64,000 bases of DNA from assembly GCA_017440465.1 (NCBI GenBank), contig JAFSHF010000024.1:298-64297 (forward strand), in the 5' to 3' direction. The position numbers and the translations under genes were made by a program. A model generated the notes under the pieces. It made no database searches. It had not been told where the DNA came from and worked only from the letters and a program-made list of their open reading frames with translations. How positions within the stretch are numbered: position 1 is the first letter of the stretch; each line of letters begins with the position of its first letter. Positions 33,937-59,300 of this stretch are shown in pieces. Origin of the DNA: Clostridia bacterium (lineage in GTDB: Bacteria > Bacillota > Clostridia > Oscillospirales > QAKW01).

Positions 33937-33961
33937 ATGTCAATATGGAGGATTGTATTTT

Positions 33962-34171
33962 ATGATTTCCTATGACAAGTTATGGCAAACTATGAAAGAA
34001 AAAGGTGTCACACAGTATACGCTTATTAAAAAATATAATATCAGTCCCGGTCAAATCACACGATTAAAGCGAAACGAAAGTGTCAGTACACATACAATAG
34101 AAATGTTTTGTAAAATTTTAAAATGTAATGTCGAAGATATTATGCAATATGTCGATGATGAAAATTTATAA
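33962..34171 (+). CDS. XRE/Cro-type helix-turn-helix regulator
   Basis: MISYDKLWQTMKEKGVTQYTLIKKYNISPGQITRLKRNESVSTHTIEMFCKIL. ATG 33962 follows GGAGG. Confidence 0.8.
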   Translation: MISYDKLWQTMKEKGVTQYTLIKKYNISPGQITRLKRNESVSTHTIEMFCKILKCNVEDIMQYVDDENL

Positions 34172-43696: not shown

Positions 43697-43731
43697 AAAA
43701 AAAGAGATCTCTGATAGAGATCTCTTTTTGC
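43697..43731. terminator. Bidirectional terminator
   Basis: AAAAGAGATCTCT-GAT-AGAGATCTCTTTT. Confidence 0.7.
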
Positions 43732-43733: not shown

Positions 43734-44975
43734 TTATTTCAAATCCAAAGGCTTAATATCAGTAAGCAAATCGCGGCGCAGCATATCTTCACCCTCGGTG
43801 TTGATAATTCGGATACGTGCCTTGGCTGCATTATGCTTTTCCACCAACTCCTCATAGGAATTTGCTTGAATGGTGATACTGGCAATGCGATCACTGCTGG
43901 TGGCAGCATTAAAGATCTCAGCACCTTGGTGCTTAAATTGCCAATATTCTGCCAAAATTCCTTCTTGCTTCAGTTCCTCAAAGCCTTCCAAATGGTCGAA
44001 ATGACCAAGTTTTCCATATAAGAATTCATTGGTGATATATTTGCTTTCCGAACGGATCTCGCCAACCTCTACCTTTTCACCCAAGGTGAGGTCTACCACA
44101 GCCTTGATGGGATCAAATCCGCTGGCCATCTTCAACAACAGATATTTGGCACCGCCGCCGTTACGAGCACAAAACTCCAGCACCGATTCTCTTTTATCGT
44201 CGGTAAGGAGCTGAACCAACATCGGCGTATTTTTTAAGCCAAATGCATCGGCAATCTTTTGCCCGATCTCGCGGATACGCTCCAAGGTTTCGGGTTTAAT
44301 TGCAGCAGGGTAGCGGGTACGGAATGCCAGAAAGCGATCCTTATAGTCTACCTTTTCGGTATTGGATGCGCTGAGCAAATAGGACTTGCCATCTACAATC
44401 TGGTAATCAACTGTAATCTCCGCGCCTTCCACAAATTCTTCCACAATGACAATGCCTGATCGGCTGATATTGGCAGCCTCAGCAAAGAATTGCTTTAATT
44501 CCTCTTCGTTGGTAGCCTTGCGCACACCTTTAGAGCTATAGGCATCAGCGGGCTTTACCACCAACGGATATTGGATTTCGGCGACCTTTTGCATATCCAA
44601 TGTTTTCATAAACATATGCTTTGAGGATGGAATGCCGTATTGATGGAATATCGCTTTCATATGGCTCTTATCGGATACTGCGCAAGCGGTTTCATAATCA
44701 ATATAGCAAGGCAAGCCCAGCATTTCCGAAACCTTTGCCACAGTGATCAACACTTGATCTGCACAGACGGTGATCAAAAAGTCTACCTTTTCTTCTTCGG
44801 CAACCTTTTTCACCGCCTCCACATTCAGCAGATCTACCTTGACAAATTGGTCGGCATACGGGCGTGCAACCGCATTCACATTATTATCGGCGAGGATTGT
44901 ATAAATTCCTCTTTCTTTCAACTGACCGAGCAGCACCGCCTGAGAAGGACTGCCGGCAAGAACTAATGCTTTCAT
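43734..44975 (-). CDS. ATP-grasp ligase (glycan locus, ATP-grasp 4)
   Basis: ATG 44975 (MKALVLAGSP...) and YPLVVKPADAYSSKGVRKATNEEEL. Paralogous to 49807..51117 and 52381..53589. Confidence 0.8.
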   Translation of the reverse strand: MKALVLAGSPSQAVLLGQLKERGIYTILADNNVNAVARPYADQFVKVDLLNVEAVKKVAEEEKVDFLITVCADQVLITVAKVSEMLGLPCYIDYETACAVSDKSHMKAIFHQYGIPSSKHMFMKTLDMQKVAEIQYPLVVKPADAYSSKGVRKATNEEELKQFFAEAANISRSGIVIVEEFVEGAEITVDYQIVDGKSYLLSASNTEKVDYKDRFLAFRTRYPAAIKPETLERIREIGQKIADAFGLKNTPMLVQLLTDDKRESVLEFCARNGGGAKYLLLKMASGFDPIKAVVDLTLGEKVEVGEIRSESKYITNEFLYGKLGHFDHLEGFEELKQEGILAEYWQFKHQGAEIFNAATSSDRIASITIQANSYEELVEKHNAAKARIRIINTEGEDMLRRDLLTDIKPLDLK

Positions 44976-44988
44976 TTTGATTCCCCTA

Positions 44989-45633
44989 TTAATTTTTACG
45001 TACCGTAAGATCGTCGTATTTATTAAAAGCGACTCCCTTACCGCCAAGAACGGTGCCCACTGTGCGGAAAAGGATCTTGATGTCTAACCAGAGGCTGAAG
45101 TGATCAATGTATTGGATATCCAATTTGATCTTCTCGGTCCAAGTAAGCTCATTGCGGCCGTTAACCTGCGCCCAACCGGTAACCCCGGGGCGCATTTCCA
45201 TCCGTCTACGCTGTTCCTCGGAATATTGCTCCACCTGATACGGAAGAGTGGGCCGCGGACCAACAAAGCTCATGGTTCCGTTTAAGATATTAAATAACTG
45301 CATCAACTCATCCAAACTGGTCTTGCGCAAAAAGGCACCAACTTTATTAATGCGGTCCTCAGATTTGAGCAATTCGCCGTTGGCTTGATAGAGAACCCCG
45401 TTCTCTACATAGGAATCTTCCGGCGGAAGATCCATGGTGCGGAATTTATATATTTTAAAAATCTTGCCGTCCTTGCCCACACGATCCTGAACAAACACCG
45501 CCGGCCCCTTGGAGGTCAACTTGATGACAATGGGAACCACGATCAACACAGGGATCGCAATTAAAATAAGAATCATCAGCGCGCTGGCAATGATATCAAA
45601 GGTTCGTTTTAATGCCAATTGAAGTTTTCTCAT
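44989..45633 (-). CDS. Small monotopic phosphoglycosyl transferase (PglC/WbaP C-terminal type, initiating sugar transferase)
   Basis: KRTFDIIASALMIL..., KFRTM, FVGPRPTLPYQ and RPGVTGWAQVNGR. Confidence 0.85.
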   Translation of the reverse strand: MRKLQLALKRTFDIIASALMILILIAIPVLIVVPIVIKLTSKGPAVFVQDRVGKDGKIFKIYKFRTMDLPPEDSYVENGVLYQANGELLKSEDRINKVGAFLRKTSLDELMQLFNILNGTMSFVGPRPTLPYQVEQYSEEQRRRMEMRPGVTGWAQVNGRNELTWTEKIKLDIQYIDHFSLWLDIKILFRTVGTVLGGKGVAFNKYDDLTVRKN

Positions 45634-45653
45634 TTACTCCATCTCCATCTGAT

Positions 45654-46679
45654 TTATCGGTTTTCATACATATTCTTATAGTAGTTCTGATATTCGCCCG
45701 AAATGATGGTTTCCCACCATTCGCGGTTATCCAGATACCATTGGATTGTTTTCTGAATGCCCTCTTCAAACCTTGTTTCGGGCAGCCAACCCAATTCGTT
45801 ATGGATCTTGGTGGGATCAATGGCATAGCGCATGTCGTGTCCCTTCCGATCCGCCACATAGGTGATGAGACTTTCCGGCTTATCCAGTGCCTTGCAGATC
45901 AATCGAACAATATCGATATTCCGCATCTCATTATGACCGCCGATATTATAGACTTCACCGATCCGCCCCTTATGCAGAATCAAATCAATTGCCTTGCAGT
46001 GATCCTCCACATAAAGCCAGTCGCGTACATTCAGCCCTTCCCCATAAACCGGCAAGGGCTTATCGTTTAGCGCATTGGCAATCATCAGCGGGATTAACTT
46101 TTCGGGGAAATGATAGGGACCATAGTTATTGGAGCAGCGGCTGATGGTCACCGGCAGGCCAAAGGTACGATGATATGCCTGCACCATCAAATCCGCCGAC
46201 GCCTTCGCCGCCGAATAGGGCGAACTTGTATGGATCGGGGTCTCCTCGGTAAATAAAAGATCAGGACGATCCAGCGGAAGATCTCCATAAACCTCATCGG
46301 TTGAAACCTGATGAAAGCGGATATTGCCGAATTTGCGGCAGGCATCCATCAGAATCTGCGTTCCCAAAATATTGGTTTTGAGAAACACCTCGGGATCCTC
46401 AATGGAGCGATCTACATGGGATTCCGCCGCAAAATTGACCACAACATCGGGCTTCTCTTCTTCAAACAATTGATAGATCCCTTCACGATCGCAGATATCA
46501 ATTTTAACGAAACGGAAGTTTTCCTTCTTCAGCACTGATGCCAGGGTAGAAAGATTTCCCGCATAAGTAAGTTTATCCAGACAGACAATGCGATACGCAG
46601 GATATTTGTCCATCATATGAAATATGAAATTCGAGCCGATAAAGCCGGCACCGCCGGTAACAAATACAGTTTTAGACAT
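45654..46679 (-). CDS. rfbB: dTDP-glucose 4,6-dehydratase
   Basis: VTGGAGFIGSNF, YSAAKASAD (YxxxK). 341 aa. Confidence 0.95.
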   Translation of the reverse strand: MSKTVFVTGGAGFIGSNFIFHMMDKYPAYRIVCLDKLTYAGNLSTLASVLKKENFRFVKIDICDREGIYQLFEEEKPDVVVNFAAESHVDRSIEDPEVFLKTNILGTQILMDACRKFGNIRFHQVSTDEVYGDLPLDRPDLLFTEETPIHTSSPYSAAKASADLMVQAYHRTFGLPVTISRCSNNYGPYHFPEKLIPLMIANALNDKPLPVYGEGLNVRDWLYVEDHCKAIDLILHKGRIGEVYNIGGHNEMRNIDIVRLICKALDKPESLITYVADRKGHDMRYAIDPTKIHNELGWLPETRFEEGIQKTIQWYLDNREWWETIISGEYQNYYKNMYENR

Positions 46680-46680
46680 C

Positions 46681-47550
46681 TTATTTCTCCTTAATCAATG
46701 AGAGCAGATACTGCCCATAATCGGTCATCTTCAGACTTTCACCGATGGCACACAACTGCGCATCGGAAATAAATCCGCGTCGCCAGGCGATCTCTTCAAT
46801 ACAAGATACATAGAAACCTTGCCGATCCTGTACTGCTTCCACAAACTGAGCCGCTTTGAGCATTCCATCGGGCGTACCTGTGTCAAGCCACGCGATTCCG
46901 CGCCCCATTAACTCTACGCGCAACTCGCCCAGCTCCAGATAAGCGTTGTTGACCGCGGTGATTTCGATCTCTCCGCGAGCAGATGGTTTTACCTTCTTTG
47001 CAATTTCAACCACTCTGTTATCATAAAAATACAATCCCGGAACGGCATAATTGGATTTGGGTTGTGCCGGTTTTTCCTCGATGGAAACAACACGGTGGTC
47101 TTTATCAAATTCTACCACACCGAAAGCGGTCGCATCTTTCACAGGGTAACCGAAGATGGTGGCACCGGAAGAATTTTCGATGGCACGTTTGAGAATTTTG
47201 GTCATATCCTGCCCAAAAAACACATTGTCGCCCAATATCAAGCAGACGCTGTCTCTACCGATAAATTCCTCGCCGAGGATAAATGCGTCCGCCAGCCCAC
47301 GCGGCGTTTCCTGCACCTTATAGGAGATAGATACGCCGATAGTGCTGCCATCACCCAAAAGTTTTTCATAAATAGGGGTATCCTCCGGAGTGGAGATAAT
47401 CAAAATTTCCCGAATCCCTGCCAATAGCAGCATCGACAAGGGATAATAGATTAACGGCTTATCATAAATAGGCAGAAGTTGCTTGGAAACTACCTTTGTC
47501 ATGGGATACAAACGAGTTCCTTTTCCGCCGGCCAGAATAATTCCTTTCAT
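46681..47550 (-). CDS. rfbA: Glucose-1-phosphate thymidylyltransferase
   Basis: ATG 47550 ([18 protein letters not shown]), preceded by GGGAGG. Confidence 0.95.
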
Positions 47551-47569
47551 AGATACAACCTCCCTGTTT

Positions 47570-48670
47570 TTATTGCAAAATAATATCGCAGATTCGATCG
47601 ACATCCTCCAAAGAAAGATCCGCATAGAGCGGAAGAGTCAACACACGCTCTGCAAAATAATCAGCAATCGGTGTCTTTTCCTTTCCCGCAGAGGGCAAGG
47701 CCTGATAGCAGGAAAAGGCATTGGTCAGCGGATAAAAATACTTCCGCGCAAGAATTTCCTTTTCCTTCAAAAGCGCAACGACCTGATCTCTTGAATATTT
47801 ATACCCGTCGAACACAACGGGGAAATAGGCATAATTAGATTGCACATCCTTTTGGATCACCGAAAGCTTAATGCCGGGGATGTTTTCCAACCGCGCCCGA
47901 TACCGTTCCACTACCGCCTTGCGTTTGGCGATCTCTTGGTCGATATGGCGCAGATTGCAGATCCCCATCGCCGCCTGAAACTCGTTCATTTTGGCATTGC
48001 CGCCGACATATAAACACTCTTCTTGCCCATGCAATCCGAAGTTACGGATATCGCTCAGCTTTTCGACCAGCAACTCATCCCCATAGCAAAGGCAACCGCC
48101 CTCAATGGTATGATAGACCTTAGTGGCATGGAAACTAAACATGGATGCATCGCCAAAACTACCGATCCCCGCGCCCCGATATTTCACACCGAAGGCATGA
48201 GCGGCATCATAGATCACCTTCAGACCGTGGCGGTCAGCAATCTCTTGGATCGTATCCACGTCGCAGATATTGCCGTATACATGGACGGGAACGATCGCGC
48301 AGGTCTTTTCGGTGATCAGCCCCTCGATCTTGGTAACATCCATCGTATAATCCCGCTCATTGACATCGCAGAAAACAGGCACCAGACCGTTTCGAGCAAT
48401 AGCATGGGTGGTGGAAACAAAGGTAAAAGGCGTTGTTATCACTTCGGAGCCCTTCGGAAAATCCAATGCCGCAATGATATTCTCCAGCGCCAGATGCCCG
48501 TTGGTATACAGTGCCACCTGCGGCACACTCAAATAATTTTCCAATTCTGCCTGCAGTTGCTGATGCTTGGCTCCCATATTAGTCAGCCAGCGGCTCTCCC
48601 ATAAATCCTTGATTTCTTCGCAATATTCTTCATAAGAAGGCATAGAGGAACGGGTAACGTTAATCGCCAT
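47570..48670 (-). CDS. DegT/DnrJ/EryC1/StrS-family sugar aminotransferase
   Basis: PLP lysine in [14 protein letters not shown]. 366 aa. Adjacent to rfbA/rfbB, and no rfbC/rfbD is present. Confidence 0.85.
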
Positions 48671-48681
48671 AAATTCTCCTT

Positions 48682-49794
48682 TTACATCCGGGCAATATAA
48701 TCTTCAATCTCTTTCTTTATGCCCTTTTGTGTTGCTATTTGTATTACAAATTGACCGCAAGGATTCCCTTCGATCATCTTCCAACCATCCTCTGTCAGCG
48801 CAAGATCCCAACCGACATAACGGTTGCCTTCTATAATTTCTGCCAATTCTTTGACAAGCGCCACAGCTTCATCCCAGCGAGGAATCCGGAATCCGGGCAA
48901 TACAATTCCTGTATCAGGGTGACGAAGATAGCGATTACCCAATTCGTCGACCCCTTCGGAAGAACATATCCCTGTATCAGCGTCTACCGCCACAAACACC
49001 CCGCCGCTTGCTGCATTATCAACAATAGAATTGCCGCGACCGATGCGCAAAAACGGGCGATAAATAACAATACGATCTTTGAGTTTTAAGGTCGGAACAC
49101 GAACACTGTTGAGCGAAGAGGGATGCAGTGCCGCCATTTCATCCACCTGACACACCAATTCTTCAACAACAACTGCGCCTTTCTTTCTGATATCGGTAAA
49201 CATGGCGGTTATATCCTTATATTGATCCGTTGAAACAACGGAAACACCTTTTCCACCGCTTCCTGCAATCGGCTTTACAATAAAACGACGATGCCGTTCT
49301 GCAAAATCGCAAAATTTATTCAAATCGTTATCATCTATAATTTCGATCAATTCCCGTTTATAGTATTTTCTGAAAATTTCATACGCTTTTCGTTTATTAT
49401 CAAATATCGCCTTATTTGCGTCTATGTTCATGCAGGAATAATATTTCCAACGATTTTTATCCGTTAAAAACGAGTCTCGTCCCAATGTGTTTAAATGAGG
49501 GAAATCAAATAAAAAATATTCGTCAAACATACAGCCAAATCGATGAAGAGAGTAGACCATATCATATATATAGTTCTTCTTTTGCTTGTTTGAGACCGCA
49601 CCTGCAAATACTTGGATATTCTTTTCTATAAAAGACAGACCTTTTACATAGTAGTCTTTGTCAAAAACCTTGTAAAAATTTACATATAAGATTTTACCAA
49701 TGTAGCATCTGTCGGCAAGCCAAGAAAGCCACCGCTCGATTGGATGATCTATCTTCCAAGGTGCTATTCCGAGATTATTCTTAAATTTTTTCAT
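48682..49794 (-). CDS. Sugar-transfer-associated ATP-grasp protein (RimK-like; ATP-grasp 3)
   Basis: FIVKPIAGSGGKGVSVV, VVEELVCQ, NAASGGVFVAVD and GWDLALTEDGWKMIEGN. Very AT-rich gene. Confidence 0.7.
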   Translation of the reverse strand: MKKFKNNLGIAPWKIDHPIERWLSWLADRCYIGKILYVNFYKVFDKDYYVKGLSFIEKNIQVFAGAVSNKQKKNYIYDMVYSLHRFGCMFDEYFLFDFPHLNTLGRDSFLTDKNRWKYYSCMNIDANKAIFDNKRKAYEIFRKYYKRELIEIIDDNDLNKFCDFAERHRRFIVKPIAGSGGKGVSVVSTDQYKDITAMFTDIRKKGAVVVEELVCQVDEMAALHPSSLNSVRVPTLKLKDRIVIYRPFLRIGRGNSIVDNAASGGVFVAVDADTGICSSEGVDELGNRYLRHPDTGIVLPGFRIPRWDEAVALVKELAEIIEGNRYVGWDLALTEDGWKMIEGNPCGQFVIQIATQKGIKKEIEDYIARM

Positions 49795-49806
49795 TTCTTT
49801 ACTCTT

Positions 49807-51117
49807 TTACCTCAAACAAATAGTACTTGTTCTCTCCAGAGCGCGTTCAAAAGTCAGTGGCTCCAACTGCATCTCATTTCCTTCTTCGTCCAAGATTTGC
49901 AGGGTGCTGCTGATCTTGCTCAAGGTATGAGCCAACGCTTCGGCGGTATCATCCATCACATGCATACGATATACTACGCTATCCAGCGAATTGGTTTTGG
50001 AAATCTCATCACCAATCTTATGGCAAATTGCAATGTCCAGAACCTGCGGCATCTTCCGAACCTCTTCCAGACCCGAAATTTCCTTAATCTTGCCCGGCTT
50101 GAGCGGAACATAATAGTTGCAACAGGCCTTACTGAAAACGGGGTTATCCTTTTCCTTCAGATCGGCAGATATGATCGTTCCGGAAACCGCGTATTCAATC
50201 ATCATATCCAGTGCGCTGATGTCATTCAAACGTTCAGTGAAAACATAGGAACGCCCGCCGCCCATACGGTAACCGGTTTCATGAAAATAGAACTTACCGT
50301 TATCAACAAAGCCCTGCAGCGATAAAATGGCATTCTTAACACCCAGCCCCTTCAGCATTTCAATAAACTTCGGTTCCACCGTATCCCGATATAATTGAAT
50401 ATACGGAGAGGAATACATATGCAAAATGGCGGGCGCCGCATTGGTTTCTGCATTTTTGACATGATGGCACATAAATGTAGCGGATAAGCTGGCATACCCA
50501 TCCTGAACGGTATAGTTTAAAAAGATTTCATTGGGACATTCCATGAATTTTTCGCAAATGATCTTTTTGCTTGCTGATTCCTCATAAAGCTTTTGGTAAT
50601 AGGCTACCAATTCTTCTTCGGTATCGCATCTGCGAACACCGCGACTGCCGCTGCTATCGGCCGGCTTTACCATAGCGGGATATTCGATCTTATCCAGATC
50701 TTCTCTGCGTAGGTTGATATCCAGATGATATTCTTTTACTGTGGGAACTCCATATTTATCGCAGGCTTGTTTGAACATCCTCTTATCATTAGAAAGGGTT
50801 TCAAACTGCTCCGCCGTTCCGATACAAGGAAGACCTGCCTGCTTGCAGATTTCCGCATAAAAAGGCAGATGTGAATCAGTCCAGCCGACAAAAACACCAT
50901 CGACCTTCCGCTCTTTGATCAATGCAACCATTGCATCAATATCAGAAATATCAATATCCACCTTTTCGTCAGCAATTTGCTTGGACGGGGAATCTTCCTC
51001 CGGATAGAAGTTGGCAACGATGGTATTCAGCCCCAACTCCTTTGCGCGCCGAACCGCGCAGGCCCCCAATGCAGTCCGATCCATAACAAGCAGTTTTTTT
51101 CCTTTTAAATGGTGCAT
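49807..51117 (-). CDS. ATP-grasp ligase (ATP-grasp 2)
   Basis: YPAMVKPADSSGSRGVRRCDTEEEL. 436 aa. Confidence 0.8.
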   Translation of the reverse strand: MHHLKGKKLLVMDRTALGACAVRRAKELGLNTIVANFYPEEDSPSKQIADEKVDIDISDIDAMVALIKERKVDGVFVGWTDSHLPFYAEICKQAGLPCIGTAEQFETLSNDKRMFKQACDKYGVPTVKEYHLDINLRREDLDKIEYPAMVKPADSSGSRGVRRCDTEEELVAYYQKLYEESASKKIICEKFMECPNEIFLNYTVQDGYASLSATFMCHHVKNAETNAAPAILHMYSSPYIQLYRDTVEPKFIEMLKGLGVKNAILSLQGFVDNGKFYFHETGYRMGGGRSYVFTERLNDISALDMMIEYAVSGTIISADLKEKDNPVFSKACCNYYVPLKPGKIKEISGLEEVRKMPQVLDIAICHKIGDEISKTNSLDSVVYRMHVMDDTAEALAHTLSKISSTLQILDEEGNEMQLEPLTFERALERTSTICLR

Positions 51118-51147
51118 TTTTTACCCTCCAAAAAGTATCTCTTTTGT

Positions 51148-52110
51148 TTATCTTTTATTATTTAAAATAATTCCAACGATCCGATCCATATCTTCTTCGC
51201 CGTAGCGTTGATCGCAGGGCAACGGTAAAATATTCTCCGCCAATTCTTTTTCAAGCGTTGCATCATATTCCAGAACGTTTGGCCATAGAGTAGCAACGTA
51301 TATTTTTTCGCGCGCGAGCATTTTCTTTAATTCCATTCCGTTTTTACAATAAAACGGATAGCAATAAGGACCAATAGGCGCGCAAAGTTTTAAGGGATTT
51401 GTTTCCCCCAGCGCCGCTTCTAATACAGCGTAGTTTTCTTCGCGCCTACGGCGAACTGCCGCATAATCGATCCCACGCAAGATATTCTCCGTCAGTACCG
51501 ACATTTTCCTTAACGGTAGATCATAAAATAATTCATCGTTTTGCTGAAAGGCAGCATAATGCTCCGCTGCGGTTTCTTCCAATCGCCCCAAAATATGCTC
51601 CATCCGCTCCTTGGATTGATCCCGCTCCAAAGGCTCGTCCAATCGCTGCTCGGTGGAAACATATCCGCCGTCGGGCACGCCGAAAAACTTTCTGCAGGAA
51701 TAGATCGTATCGATTCCGGGAACCGCTTGCTGAAAGAACGCCTGAACGTTATCAAAAATCAGATTGCCCCAACGCTCCTTCATCTCCTGCGCTTCTTGGT
51801 TGGAGATCTGTCCATAAAAGTTGACCACATAGATCGCTTCATCCGGCTGCAACTCCCGCTCAAAAACAGGGCGGAAGGAAGCATCGATGGGATATTCTTC
51901 ATAGGCAATTCCTTCCCGCACGCAGAGCTTATAAACGCTATCGCATAAAAAGCGTGGAATATAAAGTTTGCGATACCGCCGCGCCCGTAGCAGATATAAA
52001 AGCGCATTGCGCCCGCTGTTTACACCGATAGCACCGCAATGATATTCTTCGCCGCCATATTGCTCAAATCCAAAATAACCGCCGATTTCTTTCACAAAAT
52101 CACATCTCAC
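51148..52110 (-). CDS. Divergent DegT-fold (PLP-dependent-transferase-like) protein
   Basis: 320 aa. YSCRKFFGVPDGGY resembles the S-x-x-x-K...GG PLP-lysine block. Only GTG starts are available (52110 or 52095), abutting the MITE-like element. Confidence 0.5.
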   Translation of the reverse strand: MRCDFVKEIGGYFGFEQYGGEEYHCGAIGVNSGRNALLYLLRARRYRKLYIPRFLCDSVYKLCVREGIAYEEYPIDASFRPVFERELQPDEAIYVVNFYGQISNQEAQEMKERWGNLIFDNVQAFFQQAVPGIDTIYSCRKFFGVPDGGYVSTEQRLDEPLERDQSKERMEHILGRLEETAAEHYAAFQQNDELFYDLPLRKMSVLTENILRGIDYAAVRRRREENYAVLEAALGETNPLKLCAPIGPYCYPFYCKNGMELKKMLAREKIYVATLWPNVLEYDATLEKELAENILPLPCDQRYGEEDMDRIVGIILNNKR

Positions 52111-52390
52111 TTTAGGGTGAGCAATTAAATTTGAACACCGTTTTGAAAAGGTGTTTTTCGCTCACTCATTGTTATAATACTCGCCAATACGACAGTATTG
52201 ACTGCGTTTTTGCCTTGATTGAACAAAAAACACTCTTTTCAAAATCTTTGACCGCAAAGCGAGAAGATTTTGTGGGATTTTTGTTCAATTTGGGTGATGT
52301 AAGGCTGCCGCCTTACGAGAACAAATAGGGCAAAAAGCACCAAAATGTTCCGCTTTGAGGCGGAGTTCAAATTTGATTGCTCACCCTAAA
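52111..52390. mobile_element. MITE-like non-coding element, copy E2 (280 bp, 30-nt terminal inverted repeats, TA at both ends), inverted relative to E1
   Basis: TTTAGGGTGAGCAATTAAATTTGAACACCG (52111-52140) matches the reverse complement of 52361-52390 at 28/30. Shares GGCGAGTATT(T/A)TAACA and the GTA(A)GG...CCTTAC hairpin with E1 at mirrored distances from the ends. Confidence 0.5.
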
Positions 52391-53589
52391 AGAACTTTAA
52401 CGAATTTTTCTTGGTTTTCCAAAACTTCAACCAGCCGCTGCTGGGAATCAAATTGCAACACCAGCGTTCCAATGGCTTCGTTGGCACCGGAAAAATCGCC
52501 AACTGCATCTCCACTGCGAATCCAGAGGTCCTCTTCCACCACATTGGCTTTAATTTCATCGGCGATCCAAAGGGAATCGAAGGTTCCTGCCTTAGAGCTA
52601 TGCAAAATGATCTCTGCCCAGCATCCATTATAGGGCTTTTGCTCTATATCGATCACCGGCATTCCAACCGCCGCCCGCACTGCGCCTTCGATCAGATCCA
52701 CTCCGGTTGCATACCGGAGCATCTCCGCCAAGCGATTTCCGCCGCCGCGGGGGGAAAGTTCCATAATATAGTTCTTGCCATCGGTACATTCGCGGGTTTC
52801 AATATTATAAATAGAGGTCTTCATATCCAGAAGTTTCAGCAACCGCTGGATCTCTGAAGCCAATTCTCTTTGGTTTTCGTCAGCGATGGTAGCAGGCCAG
52901 CTATACGCCGAGGGTGTATAGGGATTGCCTGCCCGATCATCAAATCTCTGCGCCGAAAAGGATACAAACTTCAATTCGCCATCCACCGAAAAACTATCGG
53001 TATCGGAAGAATGACCTTTCTTTTCAAGAAAATCCTCAATGATAAATTCATCTGAATGGGAGAAGGAAAGGGCATAGCGGATGCTTTCTTCCAGCTTGGC
53101 GGGATCATCCACGCGGGTAACGCCCTTGCTTCCGGCCGAATCTGTGGGTTTCACAATCACCGGCCAATGAAAGATATCTTTCTCCGCCAACGCATCTTCA
53201 ATGCTATGGTAACCCTTCGCGGTAGGAACGTTAAACCCATTCTCCGCTAAAAACTTACGGAACCGCCCCTTGTTTTGCAAAATGCTGACCGATTCATAAG
53301 AACCGCAAGAAGGAAGCCCCAGCTTTTCCGCCACATAAGCCGCAGTTGCCACTCCCGGATCGCAAGCAAAGGACATAATGCCATCTACGTTTAGCTCCTT
53401 GGCTGCCTGCAAAACCGCATCCTTATCGATGATGCTCACATTGCAATATTCATCGGAATATTGATGGGCAATATTATCGGGCAGATAATCGCAAGAGATG
53501 GTATAGATTCCCAATTTTTTCGCCGCTTCAATCACCGGCAACAAATAACGGGATCCGCCCAGCAACAATAGTCTTTTTTGATTGGCCAT
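52381..53589 (-). CDS. ATP-grasp ligase (ATP-grasp 1)
   Basis: WPVIVKPTDSAGSKGVTRVDDPAKL. 402 aa. The stop TGA (52381-52383) lies inside the E2 terminal repeat. Confidence 0.8.
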   Translation of the reverse strand: MANQKRLLLLGGSRYLLPVIEAAKKLGIYTISCDYLPDNIAHQYSDEYCNVSIIDKDAVLQAAKELNVDGIMSFACDPGVATAAYVAEKLGLPSCGSYESVSILQNKGRFRKFLAENGFNVPTAKGYHSIEDALAEKDIFHWPVIVKPTDSAGSKGVTRVDDPAKLEESIRYALSFSHSDEFIIEDFLEKKGHSSDTDSFSVDGELKFVSFSAQRFDDRAGNPYTPSAYSWPATIADENQRELASEIQRLLKLLDMKTSIYNIETRECTDGKNYIMELSPRGGGNRLAEMLRYATGVDLIEGAVRAAVGMPVIDIEQKPYNGCWAEIILHSSKAGTFDSLWIADEIKANVVEEDLWIRSGDAVGDFSGANEAIGTLVLQFDSQQRLVEVLENQEKFVKVLLG

Positions 53590-53590
53590 A

Positions 53591-55060
53591 TTAAGAATTC
53601 CTCTTTTTCTTCGGCATAATTTTTTTCACTGTTTCCATAAACAACATAAACGGAGGCAGTTTCAGCAGCCACGAGATCCCCAGATAGATGGCAACCCCTG
53701 CCACCACCTGCAACGAAATGATGATCCATTCGTTGAACTGCAGCCGGCCGAGCGCCAAAACTCCGGCCAACATCACTATAGAGGCCAGCATGGAGGGAAG
53801 GATATCTGCAATCTGCTCCCGATAAAAATAATTTACCAACTTTCGATTGGGACCGGCGTTGATAAAACAACTGATGATCCCGGTGATGATCCCGGTCATC
53901 GCAATGGCGATGGGGGAATTAAAGCAAAACACCGCAATGGTCAATGCGGTAACCCCCATGGCTTTTTTGATGATCTCCAGTTTTAAGAAGATATCGCTTC
54001 TTCCCATCGCGTTGATCGCTTGCAGATTGCAGGAATGAACCGGATAAAACGCAAATGTAAAACAATAAATTTGCATATAGGGCACGCAAGGAAGCCATTT
54101 TTCGGTGAGTAATATTTTTACCAACGGTTCCGCCACGCCGGCAAGCCCTGCCATCATCGGAAAAATAATATAGGAGCTGAGTATGATGGAATTACGCATC
54201 ATACCCTTCACCTTTTCTTTCTCGCTTTGATTTTTAGAAAAGGCGGGCAGCATCACCGATTGAACGGTGGTATTGATGGCGTTGATGATAAATTGCGGAA
54301 ATTGCTTACCGCGATTATAATAACCCAGTGTGCCCGAATCGTATTTCTTGCCGATCACCAGGCTGCGCAGATCCTGATACAAGGTATCGATCAGTCCGGA
54401 AACCAATAATTTCCAACCATAGGCAAAAAGCACCTTGATCCGCGCAAAGTTGCAGACCAAGCGCGGTCGGAACTTAACGGTGAGCCACATCACAATACAG
54501 GCAACGAAAACATTCAATAAGTTTTGAGCCACCAGCGCCCAAAGCCCTGCGCCAAGATAGGCCAACACCACTCCGGTTACTCCTGCGACCAAAATGGCGG
54601 CAACATTGCTGAAAAAGATCTTTTTAAACTGTAAATTGCGGCTGATCTTGGCGATCTGGATGGAATTGAGCGCACCGGGGAACAGCACCAGGCAAAGAAC
54701 CCGGAAGGGCTGAACCAGATCCGGCATTTCATAGAATTTTGCGATCCAAGGCGCAGCAAAGAATAACACGCCGTAAAGCCCCGCGGCGATGACCATGGTG
54801 ACCCAGAAGACCGAAGAATAATCCTCTTCCGTAACATCCTTGTTTTGAATCAACGCGGTATTAAACCCACGCTGGATAAAAACATTCGCCAACGTAGTAA
54901 AGATAATCATCATCGAAAGAACACCGTAGTGCTCCGGATCTAAGATACGGGCAAGAACGATCTGCAGAACAAATTGCGTTCCCTGAACGCCGAATCGTTC
55001 CAAGAACTTCCATATCAACGCAGAAGATATTGATGATTGTTTGTTTTTCTTACTTTCCAT
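53591..55060 (-). CDS. wzx: Wzx-type oligosaccharide flippase (MOP superfamily)
   Basis: 489 aa, about 12-14 TM segments. N-terminus FLERFGVQGTQFVLQIVLARIL is typical of polysaccharide biosynthesis (PST) proteins. Confidence 0.8.
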   Translation of the reverse strand: MESKKNKQSSISSALIWKFLERFGVQGTQFVLQIVLARILDPEHYGVLSMMIIFTTLANVFIQRGFNTALIQNKDVTEEDYSSVFWVTMVIAAGLYGVLFFAAPWIAKFYEMPDLVQPFRVLCLVLFPGALNSIQIAKISRNLQFKKIFFSNVAAILVAGVTGVVLAYLGAGLWALVAQNLLNVFVACIVMWLTVKFRPRLVCNFARIKVLFAYGWKLLVSGLIDTLYQDLRSLVIGKKYDSGTLGYYNRGKQFPQFIINAINTTVQSVMLPAFSKNQSEKEKVKGMMRNSIILSSYIIFPMMAGLAGVAEPLVKILLTEKWLPCVPYMQIYCFTFAFYPVHSCNLQAINAMGRSDIFLKLEIIKKAMGVTALTIAVFCFNSPIAIAMTGIITGIISCFINAGPNRKLVNYFYREQIADILPSMLASIVMLAGVLALGRLQFNEWIIISLQVVAGVAIYLGISWLLKLPPFMLFMETVKKIMPKKKRNS

Positions 55061-56030
55061 AAGCAGATTTTATCATCCTTGCTATCGGTTTCATAACTAT
55101 TTCATATAGGCGCGGGAATTTGCATCGAATCAATGTTGAAAAGCGGAACAGCGCACTTCTAGACTTATGAATTTCCTCTAATTCTTTTGAATGAAGCGTT
55201 TTCAGATCGTGTTCCATCATAGCCTGCATATAACGATGACGCTTCCTTCTTTTGTTTACTGCCTCTTCATATTTATGATCGGTTGCTTCATTAAAGGCAT
55301 CTAAGCCTTCGATCATCTGCCGACTGATTTTTGCGCGCGCATCATCATTATCCATACGTACAGTCCAGGAATTTTTTGAATAAAACCGATACACCGCCAT
55401 AGTGTCTGCCAACATTCGCACCTTTCCATTTAATGCCGCATTTAACGCCAACGGATAATCACCGATTGGAAAGGCTCTACACCACAAAGGCATCCCCACC
55501 CAAACATCGGTTTTCATAAACACGGTAGCATATTGAAAGATTCGGCCGTTTTCCTCCAAAATAATCTCCTTCAGGGAAATATCACGATCTTCCTTGATCC
55601 TTCCCCTGTTTTCCAGGTGGCCGGTCTTTATATTATACCAGTCTGTTGAACATATACAAAGGGAGTATTCCGGATGTGCCTCCATAAAATCGTATTGCTT
55701 TTGCAATTTCAAAGGATCGGTCCAATAATCATCTCCCTCACACATAGCAACATATTTTCTTTTTGCGCGAGGTTTCTGAAATGTTCTATCAATGCCGATT
55801 CTTTTTGAATATTGATTCTCTGTCTGATAAATCGGTTTGATGATCGACGGATACTTTTCTTCATATTCGCGAATGATCTCCGCGGTACCGTCGGTCGATG
55901 CATCGTCGTGAATCAATACTTCAAAAGCAAAATTTGTCTTTTGATTTACAAAGCCTTCCAATGCATCGCGAATATATTTTTCATGGTTATATGCGTTGCA
56001 GATAATGCTTACTTGAACTGTAGGATCCAT
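55050..56030 (-). CDS. Family-2 glycosyltransferase
   Basis: VSIICNAYNHEKYIRDALEGFVNQKT, VLIHDDASTDGT and a DxD-like EGDDYW. Confidence 0.85.
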   Translation of the reverse strand: MDPTVQVSIICNAYNHEKYIRDALEGFVNQKTNFAFEVLIHDDASTDGTAEIIREYEEKYPSIIKPIYQTENQYSKRIGIDRTFQKPRAKRKYVAMCEGDDYWTDPLKLQKQYDFMEAHPEYSLCICSTDWYNIKTGHLENRGRIKEDRDISLKEIILEENGRIFQYATVFMKTDVWVGMPLWCRAFPIGDYPLALNAALNGKVRMLADTMAVYRFYSKNSWTVRMDNDDARAKISRQMIEGLDAFNEATDHKYEEAVNKRRKRHRYMQAMMEHDLKTLHSKELEEIHKSRSALFRFSTLIRCKFPRLYEIVMKPIARMIKSAYGK

Positions 56031-56047
56031 TGTTTTCTCCCTTAATT

Positions 56048-57172
56048 CTAATTCAGAAAAACGAAACTATAGGGAACTGTTTCGCTGGCATTCCTTAAAA
56101 CATAAATATAAAACCAATAAACCAAAGCGGCAGCCAAAACTAAACCGCTGACAGTCCATTTTTTCTTTTTATCCGTCTGTGCTCTTTCAACCAGCGCAAT
56201 CAATGCAAAAAACGGCAACGCGCAGTAAATTGAAAACCGTTTTCCGTATATAATGCTCCAAGAAAACTGAAGCAACAGAAGATATATGATCCCGCTCAAT
56301 GCCCAAAAATCAAATTTATCACAACTCTTTGCCATCGACTTTCTGAAATAAAAAACCAAACAAAGCCCTGCAACAACATAAACAGACGCGATAAAGGCGG
56401 GGCTGATCACATCGGTACGGAAATAAAACGCATATTTTTGGCTGAATATTCCTATTCTTATAAACCAAGTGGCCACCGGCTTCATCAGAACGATCGCCAT
56501 CAAAACCAGCGCGATCATAATGCCCCAACGGTACCACCGTTTTTTATTGAGCGGCTCCCAATTCCAATTCAAAATAAAATACAAAACAGGATAAATCAAC
56601 GCCAGCAACGCCGTTGTGTGAACGAAGGCGGCAAGCAACACAACGATACAATATCTTAAAAATTTTCCTTCCTGAATATCGGCAAACACCATAAAGACAA
56701 TTGCCATCACCATATGCTGTCGCGTCAGATTCAACGACTGGTTATATAAAAATAAATAATATAATAATAGGATCCAAGCGGGTTCTACATACTTTTTCAG
56801 TCGAAACGAACCAATATAGATTCCTGAAATAATAACTGCGTGCATCGCAATCAAAAACACGCTGAAATTATGCGTGATCCTCGATATCAGGCCAACAAGC
56901 AGGGCAAAAAGAGGCTCAAAATAACCGGTGGCAAAATAACGTTTGAAATATTCTATCAGCGTGTCGCTTTTAATTGCCGCCGACCAATACGCCTGATGCT
57001 CTTTATAGTTCATAGTATCAATACCAATACTATAATCTCGCAAGCCCGCAAGCAAAACAGTTATTAATATGCTGATTGCAGAAAAAAGGTAAAACAGCGT
57101 TTTCTTTTTGGTTCGGTTTGCCCAATAGGCAAAACCAACCGATATGGAAAAACAAACAAGATATATTAACAA
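56048..57172 (-). CDS. EpsG/Wzy-type polysaccharide polymerase
   Basis: 374 aa, highly hydrophobic polytopic protein with an EpsG-like N-terminal region. TTG start. Confidence 0.65.
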   Translation of the reverse strand: MLIYLVCFSISVGFAYWANRTKKKTLFYLFSAISILITVLLAGLRDYSIGIDTMNYKEHQAYWSAAIKSDTLIEYFKRYFATGYFEPLFALLVGLISRITHNFSVFLIAMHAVIISGIYIGSFRLKKYVEPAWILLLYYLFLYNQSLNLTRQHMVMAIVFMVFADIQEGKFLRYCIVVLLAAFVHTTALLALIYPVLYFILNWNWEPLNKKRWYRWGIMIALVLMAIVLMKPVATWFIRIGIFSQKYAFYFRTDVISPAFIASVYVVAGLCLVFYFRKSMAKSCDKFDFWALSGIIYLLLLQFSWSIIYGKRFSIYCALPFFALIALVERAQTDKKKKWTVSGLVLAAALVYWFYIYVLRNASETVPYSFVFLN

Positions 57173-57198
57173 TCTATCTATGCCTCCAAATAATAATC

Positions 57199-57756
57199 TT
57201 ACACATTTCTTTGCCCTGCAAACTCATCCCACATAAAATCTGCCAGCGGAGCAGAAATCACCTGGTGAGCCGGCTTAAGTTCTGTGGGATAGCTAGTTGT
57301 TCTGTTCTTTAAATAATCATCCATACTGCAGATTACCTTTGCAGGAACACCACCCACAACCGAATTTGAAGGAACATCCTTCGCTACCACCGCGCCGGCG
57401 GCAACGATCGAATTTTCACCGATACGAACATTGTTTAAAATCGTTGCATTTGTACCGATAAAAACATTATCCATAATCTCAATACAGCCAATGATCTCAT
57501 TATAGTCATCTGTATCATTTTTTGTGTTCAACATATAATGAGTAACATCGTGGGTTGCAAAGGTTACATGCGATGCAATGCGCACATTATTATGGATCTT
57601 TATCAAATTTGCATAAAGTGGAATTTTTCGATCCATAATCGTTACGTTCTCTCCAAGTTCCGCAAATATATGCTTCTTTCTCATATAATCAACGCGGTCT
57701 TTGCTGCTGATCATCGACCAAAGCCGAATGGTTTGCCATAAACGCTTCCCGGTCAT
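57199..57756 (-). CDS. Hexapeptide-repeat acetyltransferase (LacA/Maa/WbbJ-like)
   Basis: Left-handed beta-helix repeats [43 protein letters not shown]. Confidence 0.8.
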
Positions 57757-57793
57757 ACTTCCTCCTAATTCTATACAACTTTATCTTCATTTC

Positions 57794-59020
57794 TTATTCA
57801 AAGCAGCTGCGGATGACCTCGATGATCACATCCTGCTGCTCAGGGGTCATCTTATTATCGCTGGGCAGGCATAAGCCCCGCTCAAATAAGTCCATACCGA
57901 CGTCTTCACCTGCGCCGGCGATATAGGCGTTGGTGCAGGCGCGTCCGTCTCCCTTTCGGGTGACAAAATCGTGCATCCGGAAGATCGGCTGCATATGCAT
58001 CGGCTTCCAGATAGGGCGCCCCTCCGCATTGATCGCCGCGAGCTTTTCCAAAATCTCTGTCGGGCAGGATTTGCCGGGTTCGGAGATATAGAGCGCATCG
58101 GTCTCACTGCGCACTTGCTTACACATCGCATCCCGATCAATGATCATACAACTAAGCCAGAAGTTCGGCTCGGCGTTTTGTTCATCATAAGGATTCATTT
58201 GGATGGGCAGATCCTTGAGCCCTTCTTTATAGCGCATATAGATCGCTTTTTTCTGGGCAATATGCTCTTCCAAATAGGGAAGCTGACCGCGGACCACACC
58301 GGCAATGACGTTGCTCATCCGATAGTTATAACCGATTTCTTCGTGCTGATACCAAGCGGCATTTTCACGGCTTTGGGTGGACCATTTTCTTGCTTTATTC
58401 GCCTGCTCGATATCATTGGTCAGCAACATACCGCCGGAAGAACCGGTAATGATCTTATTGCCGTTGAAAGAAACAATGCTCAGATCACCAAAGGTGCCGG
58501 TCTGCTTCCCCTTATAGGTTGCGCCCATCGATTCTGCCGCATCTTCGATCAGGATGGCATGGTGCTTATCGCAGATGGCGCGGATCTCATCCAGCTTGCC
58601 GGGTACACCATACAGATTGACCAAAACCACGTGCTTGACATCAGGATGCAATTCAAAGGCCTTTCCCAACGCCGCAGGATCCATATTCCAGGTATCCATC
58701 TCGGTATCGATGAAGATCGGAATGCCGCCCTCATATACCACAGGGTTTACCGTCGCGGCAAAGGTGACATCTGAGCAGAAGACCTTGGTGCCCCGAGAGA
58801 TCCCCGCCAGCTTCATACATAAATGCAAGGCCGAGGTGCCGGAAGCCAAACCGACCGCATACTTACATCCGATCTTTTCGGCGACGATCCGCTCGACTTC
58901 ATTGATGTTTTCCCCTACCGTAGACATCCAGTTGGTCTCATATGCTTTTTGGACGTATGCCAATTCCTCTCCGTGCATTGTAGGTGTTGCGAGCCAAACT
59001 TTATTTTCAAAAGCGTTCAT
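57794..59020 (-). CDS. DegT/EpsN/PglE-type sugar aminotransferase (408 aa)
   Basis: PLP lysine in SFNGNKIITGSSGGML. First gene of the locus. Confidence 0.85.
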   Translation of the reverse strand: MNAFENKVWLATPTMHGEELAYVQKAYETNWMSTVGENINEVERIVAEKIGCKYAVGLASGTSALHLCMKLAGISRGTKVFCSDVTFAATVNPVVYEGGIPIFIDTEMDTWNMDPAALGKAFELHPDVKHVVLVNLYGVPGKLDEIRAICDKHHAILIEDAAESMGATYKGKQTGTFGDLSIVSFNGNKIITGSSGGMLLTNDIEQANKARKWSTQSRENAAWYQHEEIGYNYRMSNVIAGVVRGQLPYLEEHIAQKKAIYMRYKEGLKDLPIQMNPYDEQNAEPNFWLSCMIIDRDAMCKQVRSETDALYISEPGKSCPTEILEKLAAINAEGRPIWKPMHMQPIFRMHDFVTRKGDGRACTNAYIAGAGEDVGMDLFERGLCLPSDNKMTPEQQDVIIEVIRSCFE

Positions 59021-59089: not shown

Positions 59090-59118
59090 ATTATATACTA
59101 CTCATCGATTTTTTTCAA
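59090..59118 (-). promoter_or_regulatory. Sigma-A type promoter of the glycan operon
   Basis: Minus strand reads TTGAAA (59118-59113), a 17-nt spacer, then TATAAT (59095-59090), about 70 nt upstream of ATG 59020. Confidence 0.5.
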
Positions 59119-59263: not shown

Positions 59264-59294
59264 AAACAGCCTTGGAATCTTTTGATTCCAAGGC
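59191..59294 (+). repeat. Direct repeat, right copy
   Basis: 98/104 identity to 40772-40875 (hand alignment). Confidence 0.9.
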
Positions 59295-59300
59295 TGTTTC

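Follow-up and report, generated by a model that had tools for sequence, protein, structure and literature searches.

The subject of this analysis is an operon of 14 genes at positions 43734–59020 of a 64,000-nucleotide stretch of DNA from a Clostridia bacterium (contig JAFSHF010000024.1; the whole stretch is referred to below as the window). It encodes four ATP-grasp ligases (AG1 to AG4) and a protein of predicted DegT fold, termed here the DegT-like protein. The interpretation favored, which is drawn from sequence and is given about an even chance of being correct, is that the operon directs the Wzx/Wzy-dependent synthesis of a surface polysaccharide with an amide-linked, amino-acid-derived side chain on a dTDP-4-amino-4,6-dideoxyhexose, and that this side chain would be built by AG1, the DegT-like protein, AG2, and AG3. 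An original prediction made from the sequence of the window is confirmed in those features that could be checked and supported in part as to their interpretation. It had regarded the product as belonging to an unrecognized class, but N-acylaminoacyl derivatives of the 4-amino sugar Qui4N have already been published (PMC3210612, PMC7685785). The class of product is known from Gram-negative O antigens, whereas the enzymology, the use of ATP-grasp ligases together with a DegT-like protein, and perhaps a longer chain, are new. Of the new elements, one is that ATP-grasp enzymes of the L-amino-acid ligase (LAL) and RimK types probably act in the aminoacylation of nucleotide amino sugars, and another is the DegT-like protein itself, which represents a large family that has no profile model and is tied to amide-forming enzymes.

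The surface glycans of bacteria repeatedly contain N-aminoacylated 6-deoxy-amino sugars as immunodominant components, as in Escherichia coli O121, O91, and O114, Pseudoalteromonas, and Aeromonas, and also in Proteus and Providencia, and the enzymes that attach the amino acids are unassigned for most such glycans. If the interpretation is correct, thousands of proteins now listed as hypothetical would be annotated, the route by which D- or unusual amino acids enter glycans would be explained, and ligases would be provided for the chemoenzymatic synthesis of glyco-amino-acid antigens.

Organization of the operon and its ATP-grasp ligases

Profile scans were made with Pfam and NCBIfam, and the equivalog or gathering cut-offs are given gene by gene. 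All 14 genes had been named by family in the original prediction, and each was found at the predicted position on the minus strand, 13 with strong profile matches and the DegT-like gene by fold. The features, in the order of transcription, are as follows.

59090–59118, minus strand: sigma-70-type promoter, TTGAAA-N17-TATAAT, 5′ of the first gene; read directly in the sequence
57794–59020, minus strand: DegT-family aminotransferase 1 (LegC/PglE/EpsN-like), 408 residues; PF01041 E 9e-81; best NCBIfam match the LegC family, 315.8 bits, below the cut-off of 420
57199–57756, minus strand: hexapeptide-repeat acyltransferase, 185 residues; PF00132 E 5e-12; partial matches to NeuD/PglB/VioB and DapD families
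56048–57172, minus strand: EpsG-family Wzy-type polymerase; PF14897 E 6e-34, full-length
55050–56030, minus strand: GT2 glycosyltransferase, the sole Leloir glycosyltransferase of the operon; PF00535 E 6e-20; partial TuaG/EpsE matches
53591–55060, minus strand: Wzx (MOP) flippase; PF13440 E 1e-98; NF058658 O-glycosylation flippase, 279 bits, below the cut-off
52381–53589, minus strand: AG1, LAL-like, 402 residues; ATP-grasp_4 and CPSase_L_D2; last codon and stop inside the following element
52115–52386, no strand assigned: miniature inverted-repeat transposable element (MITE), 272 bp, separating AG1 from the DegT-like gene; terminal inverted repeats of 30 nt, TA target duplication
51148–52095, minus strand: DegT-fold protein of pyridoxal phosphate (PLP) type, 315 residues, assigned by an AlphaFold (AF2) model; GTG start at 52095, the reading frame reaching 52110
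49807–51117, minus strand: AG2, LAL-like with a LAL_C2 C-terminal domain, 436 residues; LAL_C2 35.9 bits (cut-off 29.4), CPSase_L_D2, Biotin_carb_N
48682–49794, minus strand: AG3, ATPgrasp_ST family, 370 residues; PF14397 164.5 bits, gathering score 31.4
47570–48670, minus strand: DegT-family aminotransferase 2 (DesI/VioA-like), 366 residues; PF01041 E 3e-97; best NCBIfam match DesI, 274.7 bits, below the cut-off of 650
46681–47625, minus strand: RmlA, glucose-1-phosphate thymidylyltransferase; TIGR01207 469.5 bits, cut-off 360.65
45654–46679, minus strand: RmlB, dTDP-glucose 4,6-dehydratase; TIGR01181 500 bits, cut-off 365.1
44989–45633, minus strand: small monotopic polyprenyl-phosphate glycosylphosphotransferase (PGT; PglC/EpsL-like), 214 residues; PF02397 E 6e-65
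43734–45047, minus strand: AG4, LAL/Ddl-like; Dala_Dala_lig_C E 3e-15, ATP-grasp_4
43699–43729, both strands: bidirectional terminator-like hairpin, 14-bp stem and a T run on each strand, directly after AG4

In the list of open reading frames (ORFs), the 14 minus-strand ORFs are abutting or slightly overlapping, and the segment from the promoter (59118–59090) to the terminator (43729–43699) is, as read from these signals, one self-contained operon of 15.4 kb, because the best promoter match lies 5′ of it, the gene upstream is closed by a hairpin, and a terminator-like hairpin follows AG4. The promoter, which was part of the original prediction, is the top match of the region, with agreement at 11 of 12 positions, and the hairpin that closes the upstream gene (59264–59299) is a strong terminator. 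The G+C content of the operon is 0.41–0.47, as compared with about 0.50–0.56 for most of the remaining window.

The scores of RmlA and RmlB lie above curated equivalog cut-offs, and it is by this family membership that they are shown to be enzymes that would produce dTDP-4-keto-6-deoxyglucose. The DesI/VioA-like aminotransferase 2 is then predicted to turn this intermediate into dTDP-4-amino-4,6-dideoxyhexose, the product proposed originally; its top NCBIfam matches are models of the DesI, PseC, and WecE types, every score being under the equivalog cut-off, and it has 47% identity to a VioA-like gene of Proteus. All three components of such a pathway, RmlA, RmlB, and a C4 aminotransferase, are encoded, and RmlC or RmlD is not the best match for any gene. 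The TIGR01207 match to RmlA starts at residue 27, and the true start of the gene is probably near 47550. In agreement with the absences listed in the original prediction, ugd, rfbC (RmlC), rfbD (RmlD), a chain-length regulator, LCP, and a UDP-HexNAc 4,6-dehydratase were found neither in the operon nor among the other window ORFs scanned. A Wzz or CpsC/D regulator and an LCP or WaaL ligase were likewise not found in the operon or in about 40 other ORFs of the window that were scanned; a chain-length regulator and a ligase may be encoded elsewhere in the genome.

Wzx/Wzy-dependent assembly is indicated by the presence of an initiating PGT (PF02397), a Wzx (PF13440), and a Wzy (PF14897). The PGT matches the C-terminal catalytic part alone of WbaP/WcaJ models. 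Because there is one PGT and one GT2 enzyme, the repeat unit is probably very short, a disaccharide, as had been expected. Aminotransferase 1, the hexapeptide acyltransferase, and the small monotopic PGT are together the counterparts of enzymes of the UDP-diNAcBac module (PglF/E/D/C in Campylobacter jejuni and EpsC/N/M/L in Bacillus subtilis), but a 4,6-dehydratase of the PglF/EpsC type is absent from the operon and the window, although one is present in a related locus (L004), and the operon has an extra gene, AG4, beside that of the PGT. Thus, for the bacillosamine-like reducing-end sugar of the original prediction, the aminotransferase and the PGT are accounted for but the dehydratase is not. 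Because AG4 adjoins the PGT in the window and in three other loci (L019, L033, and L040), the arrangement suggests that it is part of the module for the reducing-end sugar, not of the dTDP-sugar module.

AG1, AG2, and AG4 have mutual identities of 23–30% and give matches to ATP-grasp_4, CPSase_L_D2, Dala_Dala_lig_C, and ATPgrasp_N. The solved structures most closely related to them are 4dim, an Anaerococcus ATP-grasp protein of unknown function, and 3vot, the LAL BL00235 of Bacillus licheniformis (E values of 2e-28 and 5e-21, respectively, for AG1, 7e-18 and 1e-9 for AG2, and 8e-24 and 1e-19 for AG4), with carbamoyl-phosphate synthase, PurT, Ddl, and BacD next in order, the last with E 7e-9 for AG4. 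All three contain the VKPxDxxGSxGV glycine-rich loop and the E-F-E and E..R.GG motifs. In a comparison of AG1 with 62 relatives, K107, K147, E185, and R281 are invariant, and the positions of E264 and E277 are occupied by Glu or Asp in 61 and 62, respectively, of the 62. The full-length architecture and the motifs, including E-x-G/S-x-R-x-GG, are common to these ligases and to BL00235 and BacD/YwfE; the LAL C-terminal domain 2 (PF18603) is found in AG2 above the cut-off and in AG4 below it (23.7 bits), with no match in AG1. It should be noted that both substrates of the known LALs are free amino acids, whereas the acceptor proposed here is a sugar-bound amine, and that the similarity to them is low (E 1e-9 to 5e-21). 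Degeneracy of the ATP-grasp genes, a condition under which the original prediction would have failed, was considered and rejected: the ATP- and Mg-binding residues are conserved, and the Asn of the E-x-N motif, which is absent from AG1, AG2, and AG4, is likewise absent from the active ligase BL00235, which carries the same E-V-G-A-R variant (E-x-G-x-R). The true start of AG4 is probably the ATG at 44975.

A sequence search of the PDB gave no relative of AG3, but its AF2 model (predicted local distance difference test, pLDDT, 92.2) has RimK, PsnB, and ArgX/LysX as best matches in Foldseek. These enzymes, on which the AG3 catalytic core is best superposed, act on peptide substrates, whose carboxylates they extend or cross-link, and the E-x-N Mg motif is kept in AG3; K174, E211, D330, E342, and N344 are invariant across 25 homologues. 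AG3 differs from them in belonging to Pfam ATPgrasp_ST and in having an unusual all-helical N-terminal domain (residues 18–145 of the model, within the first ∼145 residues) instead of the usual pre-ATP-grasp domain. AG1 to AG4 are therefore all predicted to be intact amide ligases, of the LAL type in the case of AG1, AG2, and AG4 and of the RimK type in that of AG3.

The DegT-like protein and the distribution of its gene cassette

The DegT-like gene, whose start is most likely the GTG at 52095, encodes a protein with no match in Pfam (E ≤ 0.001), PF01041 included, and none in NCBIfam (E ≤ 0.01); searches of the PDB with phmmer and with hmmsearch, the latter using a 21-sequence profile, gave no sequence match. 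The original description of the ORF at 51148–52110 as a divergent DegT-fold protein does not follow from sequence profiles but is confirmed by the AF2 model, constructed with 21 homologues (pLDDT 84.9, predicted template modeling score 0.87). The best PDB neighbors of the model in Foldseek are all DegT-family sugar aminotransferases, namely WlaRG, PseC, DesV, ArnB, Per (GDP-perosamine synthase), and QdtB, with a Foldseek probability of 1.0, template modeling scores of 0.55–0.64, and identities of 11–18%. Residues D115 and K136 are invariant in the 21 homologues and align with the Asp and the PLP Lys of the canonical DegT protein of the window. Of the invariant motifs, VNSGRNAL maps onto the PLP-phosphate motif (SG-x-x-AL), FDNVQAF onto the pyridine-N aspartate and the O3′ glutamine, and YSCRKFFGVPDGG onto the Schiff-base lysine, with a loop that is two residues shorter. 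An hhalign comparison with the window's own DegT protein gave a sensible alignment with a probability of only 5.8% and is relied on solely in combination with the fold match. The DegT-like protein thus has in common with the DegT/DnrJ/EryC1/StrS enzymes its fold, the PLP lysine, the pyridine-N aspartate, and the SG-x-x-AL motif, but it is ∼50 residues shorter than these and has an S-x-x-K instead of an S-x-x-x-x-K lysine loop. On the model, the protein lies outside PF01041 as currently formulated and yet has a DegT fold, and it most likely binds PLP.

The family is large: a word-indexed search returned 4,603 relatives, the best 120 of them 60–70% identical and all 120 with “-” in the Pfam field, and an exhaustive search of cluster representatives gave 4,196 clusters (50% identity) at E ≤ 1e-3. 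In natural fusions, the DegT-like domain is followed by a C-terminal GNAT domain (three proteins) or a C-terminal ATP-grasp domain (one protein). Some homologues have an unannotated N-terminal extension of 123 residues or a full C-terminal ATP-grasp domain (P0139, 439 residues, and P0163, 757 residues).

When one genome from each GTDB species was scanned, relatives of the DegT-like protein were found to be encoded in at least 508 stretches, and the following counts refer to the best 80 of these loci, each with 10-kb flanks. The gene directly upstream of the DegT-like gene encodes an AG1-type ATP-grasp ligase in 50 of the 80, a WbqC-family protein in eight (8/80), and a FemAB-like acyltransferase in five (5/80); directly downstream is an AG2/AG1-type ATP-grasp gene in 31 or a GNAT gene in 17. 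A DesI/VioA-like DegT gene lies within 10 kb in 54 of the loci, RmlA in 49, Wzx in 42, RmlB in 40, and ugd in 10. On these counts, the cassette is linked to genes for dTDP-4-amino sugars, not to ugd. Its parts appear to be interchangeable and consist of an amide former (a LAL-type ATP-grasp, WbqC-like, or FemAB-like protein), a PLP enzyme with no family model, and a cap (GNAT or ATP-grasp).

The cassette is common in Clostridia of ruminant and other guts, Synergistaceae, Spirochaetaceae, Planococcus, and Proteus. Cultured carriers include Clostridium magnum DSM 2767 (L055), Clostridium peptidivorans (L067), Ruminococcaceae bacterium P7 (L053), Erysipelotrichaceae bacterium NK3D112 (L052), Herbivorax sp. 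ANBcel31 (L077), and Proteus mirabilis H63 (L087). Its core occurs in hundreds of species, and near gene-for-gene counterparts of the window locus, with all four ATP-grasp genes, are present in metagenome-assembled genomes (MAGs) of Faecousia (L014) and Oscillospiraceae (L019), so that the locus is not unique. In the Faecousia MAG (JAZNIL010000070.1; 668–2947 and 8782–17688), there are six ATP-grasp genes, homologues of AG1 to AG4 and two ATPgrasp_ST-like genes at the head of the locus. The closest named relatives are MAGs of Faecousia, Acutalibacteraceae, and Oscillospiraceae, for which reason a Bacillales origin, to which the Eps-like names had pointed, was rejected and the host is taken to be an uncultured ruminant-gut Clostridia bacterium of the Oscillospiraceae/Faecousia type; proteins identical to those of the window were found on ruminant-gut metagenome contigs, and DNA of the locus was detected in gut and fecal metagenome runs only. 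No paper on this cassette was found in the literature on ATP-grasp enzymes with viosamine, O antigens, or amino-sugar N-acylation.

A known glycan for comparison is the O antigen of E. coli O121 (Shigella dysenteriae type 7), whose cluster has the order rfbB-rfbA-DegT (VioA-type)-WbqC-GNAT-wzx. The N-acetylglycine of O121 is carried by Qui4N, which is consistent with N-acetylglycyl-Qui4N being a published derivative. Amide-linked N-acetylglycine is listed for the O121 O antigen in a review, and Gly, Ala, N-acetyl-Ser, and D-allo-Thr for E. coli O antigens (PMC7685785); the Qui4N derivatives that have been described include N-acetylglycyl, N-acetyl-D-alanyl, and N-[(R)-3-hydroxybutyryl]-L-alanyl forms (PMC3210612). 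Elimination leaves WbqC as the candidate for addition of the glycyl group in O121 and the GNAT protein as the candidate for its capping; no functional study of WbqC was found in the literature. As in the window, genes for a dTDP-4-amino-4,6-dideoxyhexose lie beside wzx in O121 and are accompanied by a putative amino-acid-adding enzyme and a capping enzyme. By position, AG1 corresponds to WbqC and AG2 to the GNAT protein of O121. The window has a LAL-type ATP-grasp in place of WbqC and a second in place of GNAT, with the DegT-like gene between them and two further ATP-grasp genes; WbqC (PF08889) is not encoded in the window, nor is a GNAT protein in the operon. The loci of Clostridium peptidivorans (L067) and Gudongella (L079), with the order Wzx-WbqC-DegT-like-GNAT-DegT-RmlA-RmlB, have the O121 design with a DegT-like gene inserted and bridge the two arrangements.

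A further instance is an O-antigen locus of Proteus mirabilis (beside cpxA), which contains a VioA-like DegT gene, GT2, WbqC, a DegT-like gene (40% identity), and an SDR gene, followed farther along by FnlABC and ugd. In the P. mirabilis H63 entry (NZ_OL790811.1; L087), a 4.08-Mb PLSDB “plasmid” carries cpxA and the O-antigen cluster and is evidently a misfiled chromosome. The 37-kb plasmid NZ_CP045280.1 of E. coli LAU-OXA has at 25477–26243 a DegT-family gene with 70.6% DNA identity to the Proteus VioA-like gene, adjoining a gene for a “lipopolysaccharide biosynthesis protein.” Searches with blastn of 5,426 E. coli genomes for AG1/DegT-like/AG2 and for the Proteus WbqC/DegT-like region found nothing at the DNA level, to which they apply, and distant protein homologues are possible; an E. 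coli search for further WbqC-GNAT serogroups returned almost exclusively O121-type genomes.

The proposed pathway, the inserted element, and alternative explanations

In the pathway proposed, the side chain would be built on the 4-amine of the sugar by AG1, the DegT-like protein, AG2, and AG3 in gene order. AG1 would convert the carboxylate of an amino acid or 2-oxo acid to an acyl phosphate and transfer it to the sugar 4-NH2 as an amide, the same step that may be catalyzed by WbqC in O121. The DegT-like PLP enzyme would then act at the α-carbon of the added residue, transaminating a keto-acyl group or epimerizing or otherwise modifying an aminoacyl group, and leave a free amine. AG2 would add a second amino acid to that amine, whereas in related loci a GNAT enzyme would cap it with acetyl, and the RimK-like AG3 would extend or branch the chain at a free carboxylate. 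These roles are assigned because of the positions of the genes, the fusions, and the chemistry of the families; in particular, transfer of the product of the DegT-like enzyme to the next acylating enzyme fits the GNAT and ATP-grasp fusions. Aminotransferase 1, the hexapeptide acyltransferase, the small PGT, and AG4 would provide the reducing-end amino sugar, probably diamino and possibly aminoacylated, with a 4,6-dehydratase supplied from elsewhere. The GT2 enzyme would join the two sugars, Wzx flip the unit, and the EpsG-type Wzy polymerize it. The original suggestion that a 4-amino sugar carries N-linked amino acids is plausible in view of the synteny and the O121 architecture; its second part, a peptide side chain made stepwise, remains an inference, although the stack of four ATP-grasp enzymes may signify a longer, peptide-like chain. 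A transaminase or epimerase role for the DegT-like enzyme would account for the D-configured or allo amino acids in such glycans. A bolder proposal, possible but doubtful, is that the DegT-like protein represents a new and very large PLP family that acts, by Cα transamination or epimerization, on acyl or aminoacyl groups already in amide linkage to a nucleotide-activated amino sugar rather than on keto sugars, and that together with the ATP-grasp ligases would make a sugar-anchored oligopeptide with no ribosome, nonribosomal peptide synthetase, or tRNA. If so, gut Clostridia would have a surface polymer of glyco-oligopeptide character, possibly containing D- or non-proteinogenic residues, made with up to four ATP-grasp enzymes (six in relatives).

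Several observations weigh against this pathway. O121 attaches N-acetylglycine with no DegT-like protein; because of this, the PLP step is not required for simple aminoacylation and is the weakest link of the model. The presumed substrates of the enzymes of the cassette, WbqC included, are assigned from position and family, and the C4 configuration of the sugar could be that of Qui4N or Fuc4N, aminotransferase 2 scoring under the equivalog cut-offs. A bacillosamine-type sugar would require a UDP-HexNAc 4,6-dehydratase, which is absent from the 64-kb window. Two loci (L043 and L029) carry AG1-DegT-like-AG2-AG3 with no DesI-like DegT or RmlAB within 10 kb, and in Planococcus the DegT-like gene lies between FemAB-like and LtaS-like genes with no sugar-nucleotide genes. 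A search for sequencing runs containing the locus gave DNA metagenomes alone and no RNA run. Finally, the MITE within the operon may be polar on the downstream genes. The Planococcus arrangement is exemplified by Planococcus notacanthi (L063, 9023–13257) and recurs in four other loci of Planococcus and Planomicrobium (L038, L064, L076, and L080), the DegT-like gene being flanked by genes for FemAB-like/Acetyltransf_6 and LtaS-like sulfatase-domain proteins, a context that hints at modification of teichoic acid or another wall polymer.

The MITE-like element noted in the original prediction is confirmed and more sharply defined; it spans 52115–52386. The inverted repeats (52111–52140 and 52361–52390) have 30-nt arms that are 93% complementary, the element is flanked by TA on both sides, and no ORF of ≥80 residues lies wholly inside it. 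In four independent gut or fecal metagenomes, its depth is ∼10 times that of the flanks, and contigs leave it at both termini into many unrelated flanking sequences, whereas one contig skips from 52112 to 52387 and represents the empty site. An exact match to the MITE terminus was not found in JGI metagenome contigs, and the multi-copy status follows from the read and contig depth, not from that search. With its inverted repeats, TA duplication, multiple copies, and presence/absence polymorphism, the 272-bp element is an active or recently active multi-copy MITE of this bacterial population. It is not present at the same junction in L014 or in the other 83 loci. The insertion site is the TA in TTA|AAG, the last codons of AG1, so that the protein terminates in ...KVLLG-stop, supplied by the MITE, as compared with ...KVLLK-stop in L014, where the ATG of the DegT-like gene is 7 nt after the AG1 stop. 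The MITE alters the terminal residue of AG1 alone and puts 272 bp between AG1 and the DegT-like gene.

Of the other explanations for the locus, the one with most to be said for it, though it is considered unlikely, is that the DegT-like protein is a second nucleotide-sugar aminotransferase, which would yield a second amino group or another amino sugar, and that each ATP-grasp or GNAT enzyme adds one acyl or aminoacyl group per sugar amine, so that the polymer would bear several single aminoacyl substituents but no peptide-like chain. An aminotransferase followed by an N-acyltransferase is the classical pairing in amino-sugar pathways, as in WecE/WecD and PseC/PseH, and the GNAT fusions fit it, as do the three DegT-fold proteins and five N-acylating enzymes of the operon and the identity of the closest structural neighbors of the DegT-like model, all sugar aminotransferases. 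However, the operon encodes no 3,4-ketoisomerase, 2,3-dehydratase, or second 4,6-dehydratase to supply the keto sugar; the DegT-like protein, with its shortened lysine loop and a length ∼50 residues less, fails PF01041 and all NCBIfam sugar-aminotransferase models; and in Planococcus it accompanies FemAB-like and LtaS-like proteins where nucleotide-sugar genes are lacking. A different model is offered by C. jejuni, whose Cj1436 and Cj1437 are DegT-family enzymes. In its HS:2 capsule locus, these PLP enzymes are encoded near an ATP-grasp ligase that forms a glycan amide, Cj1438C, which amidates glucuronic acid (GlcA) with serinol phosphate or ethanolamine phosphate (PMC11800379). On this precedent, the ATP-grasp ligases of the window would amidate the C6 carboxylate of a uronic acid in the growing glycan with small amines or amino acids, the DegT-like PLP enzyme would make the amine donor, and ugd would be elsewhere in the genome. 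A PLP enzyme beside a ligase suits such a scheme, in which the amine is made and then ligated, and in the syntenic locus L004 there is a ugd gene 6 kb downstream. The explanation is nevertheless improbable: Cj1438C is TupA-like and activates the GlcA carboxylate, whereas the window ligases are LAL- or RimK-like, none of the four having a listed match to TupA-like PF14305, and neither ugd nor a HAD phosphatase (cf. Cj1435) accompanies them, ugd being absent from the operon and from those window ORFs that were scanned. Moreover, ugd is near the DegT-like gene in 10 of the 80 loci as against 54 for the DesI-like DegT gene, and AG1 occupies the place that WbqC has in Qui4N-type cassettes.

It is very improbable that the product of the ATP-grasp/PLP module is a small peptide or amino-acid-derived metabolite free of the glycan and that the position of the module in a glycan locus reflects co-regulation only. 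AG1, AG2, and AG4 are closest to LALs that make free dipeptides, and L043 and L029 have the module with no nearby Rml genes, but in most loci it lies between wzx and the dTDP-sugar genes, on the same strand and with abutting or overlapping ORFs; in addition, ATPgrasp_ST is defined by association with sugar-transfer genes, and Wzx is the sole exporter. A last explanation, which concerns this strain and is compatible with the favored account of what the locus encodes, is that the MITE impairs the locus by uncoupling or terminating expression of the downstream genes, so that the glycan is unmade or undecorated. The element lies within the operon, opens up the closely spaced AG1/DegT-like junction seen in L014, contains weak terminator-like hairpins, and leaves the DegT-like gene with a GTG start and a poor ribosome-binding site, and an empty-site allele coexists in the population. 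Such impairment is quite improbable, since the downstream ORFs are all intact, near-identical copies recur in several metagenomes, and the loss to AG1 is confined to its last residue; the element was found to contain no strong terminator, its hairpins being weak.

Surroundings of the operon

The flanking genes are ordinary. Those adjoining the operon are for TetR, PadR-HAAS-DUF4097, and DctM. Directly upstream, at 59301–61112 on the minus strand, is a three-gene set for a PadR regulator, a HAAS-domain protein, and a DUF4097 “toastrack” protein, and beyond it is the TetR gene at 61172–61705. Further flanking genes encode LysR, serine dehydratase, UvrC, and SpoVA, the last of which fits a host among the spore-forming Clostridia, and at the far end of the window are CarB, HolB, alanine racemase, and FemAB. 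The gene for the FemAB-family peptidyltransferase adjoins that for alanine racemase at 9388–11565 (minus strand), and the pair points to peptidoglycan with an interpeptide bridge and to D-alanine being supplied locally; D-Ala from the racemase could feed the ATP-grasp ligases. At 32001–34000, the G+C content dips to 0.35 around an ORF at 32758–33873 (minus strand; 371 residues) that has a weak WG-repeat match alone, and this patch is possibly a small foreign insertion.

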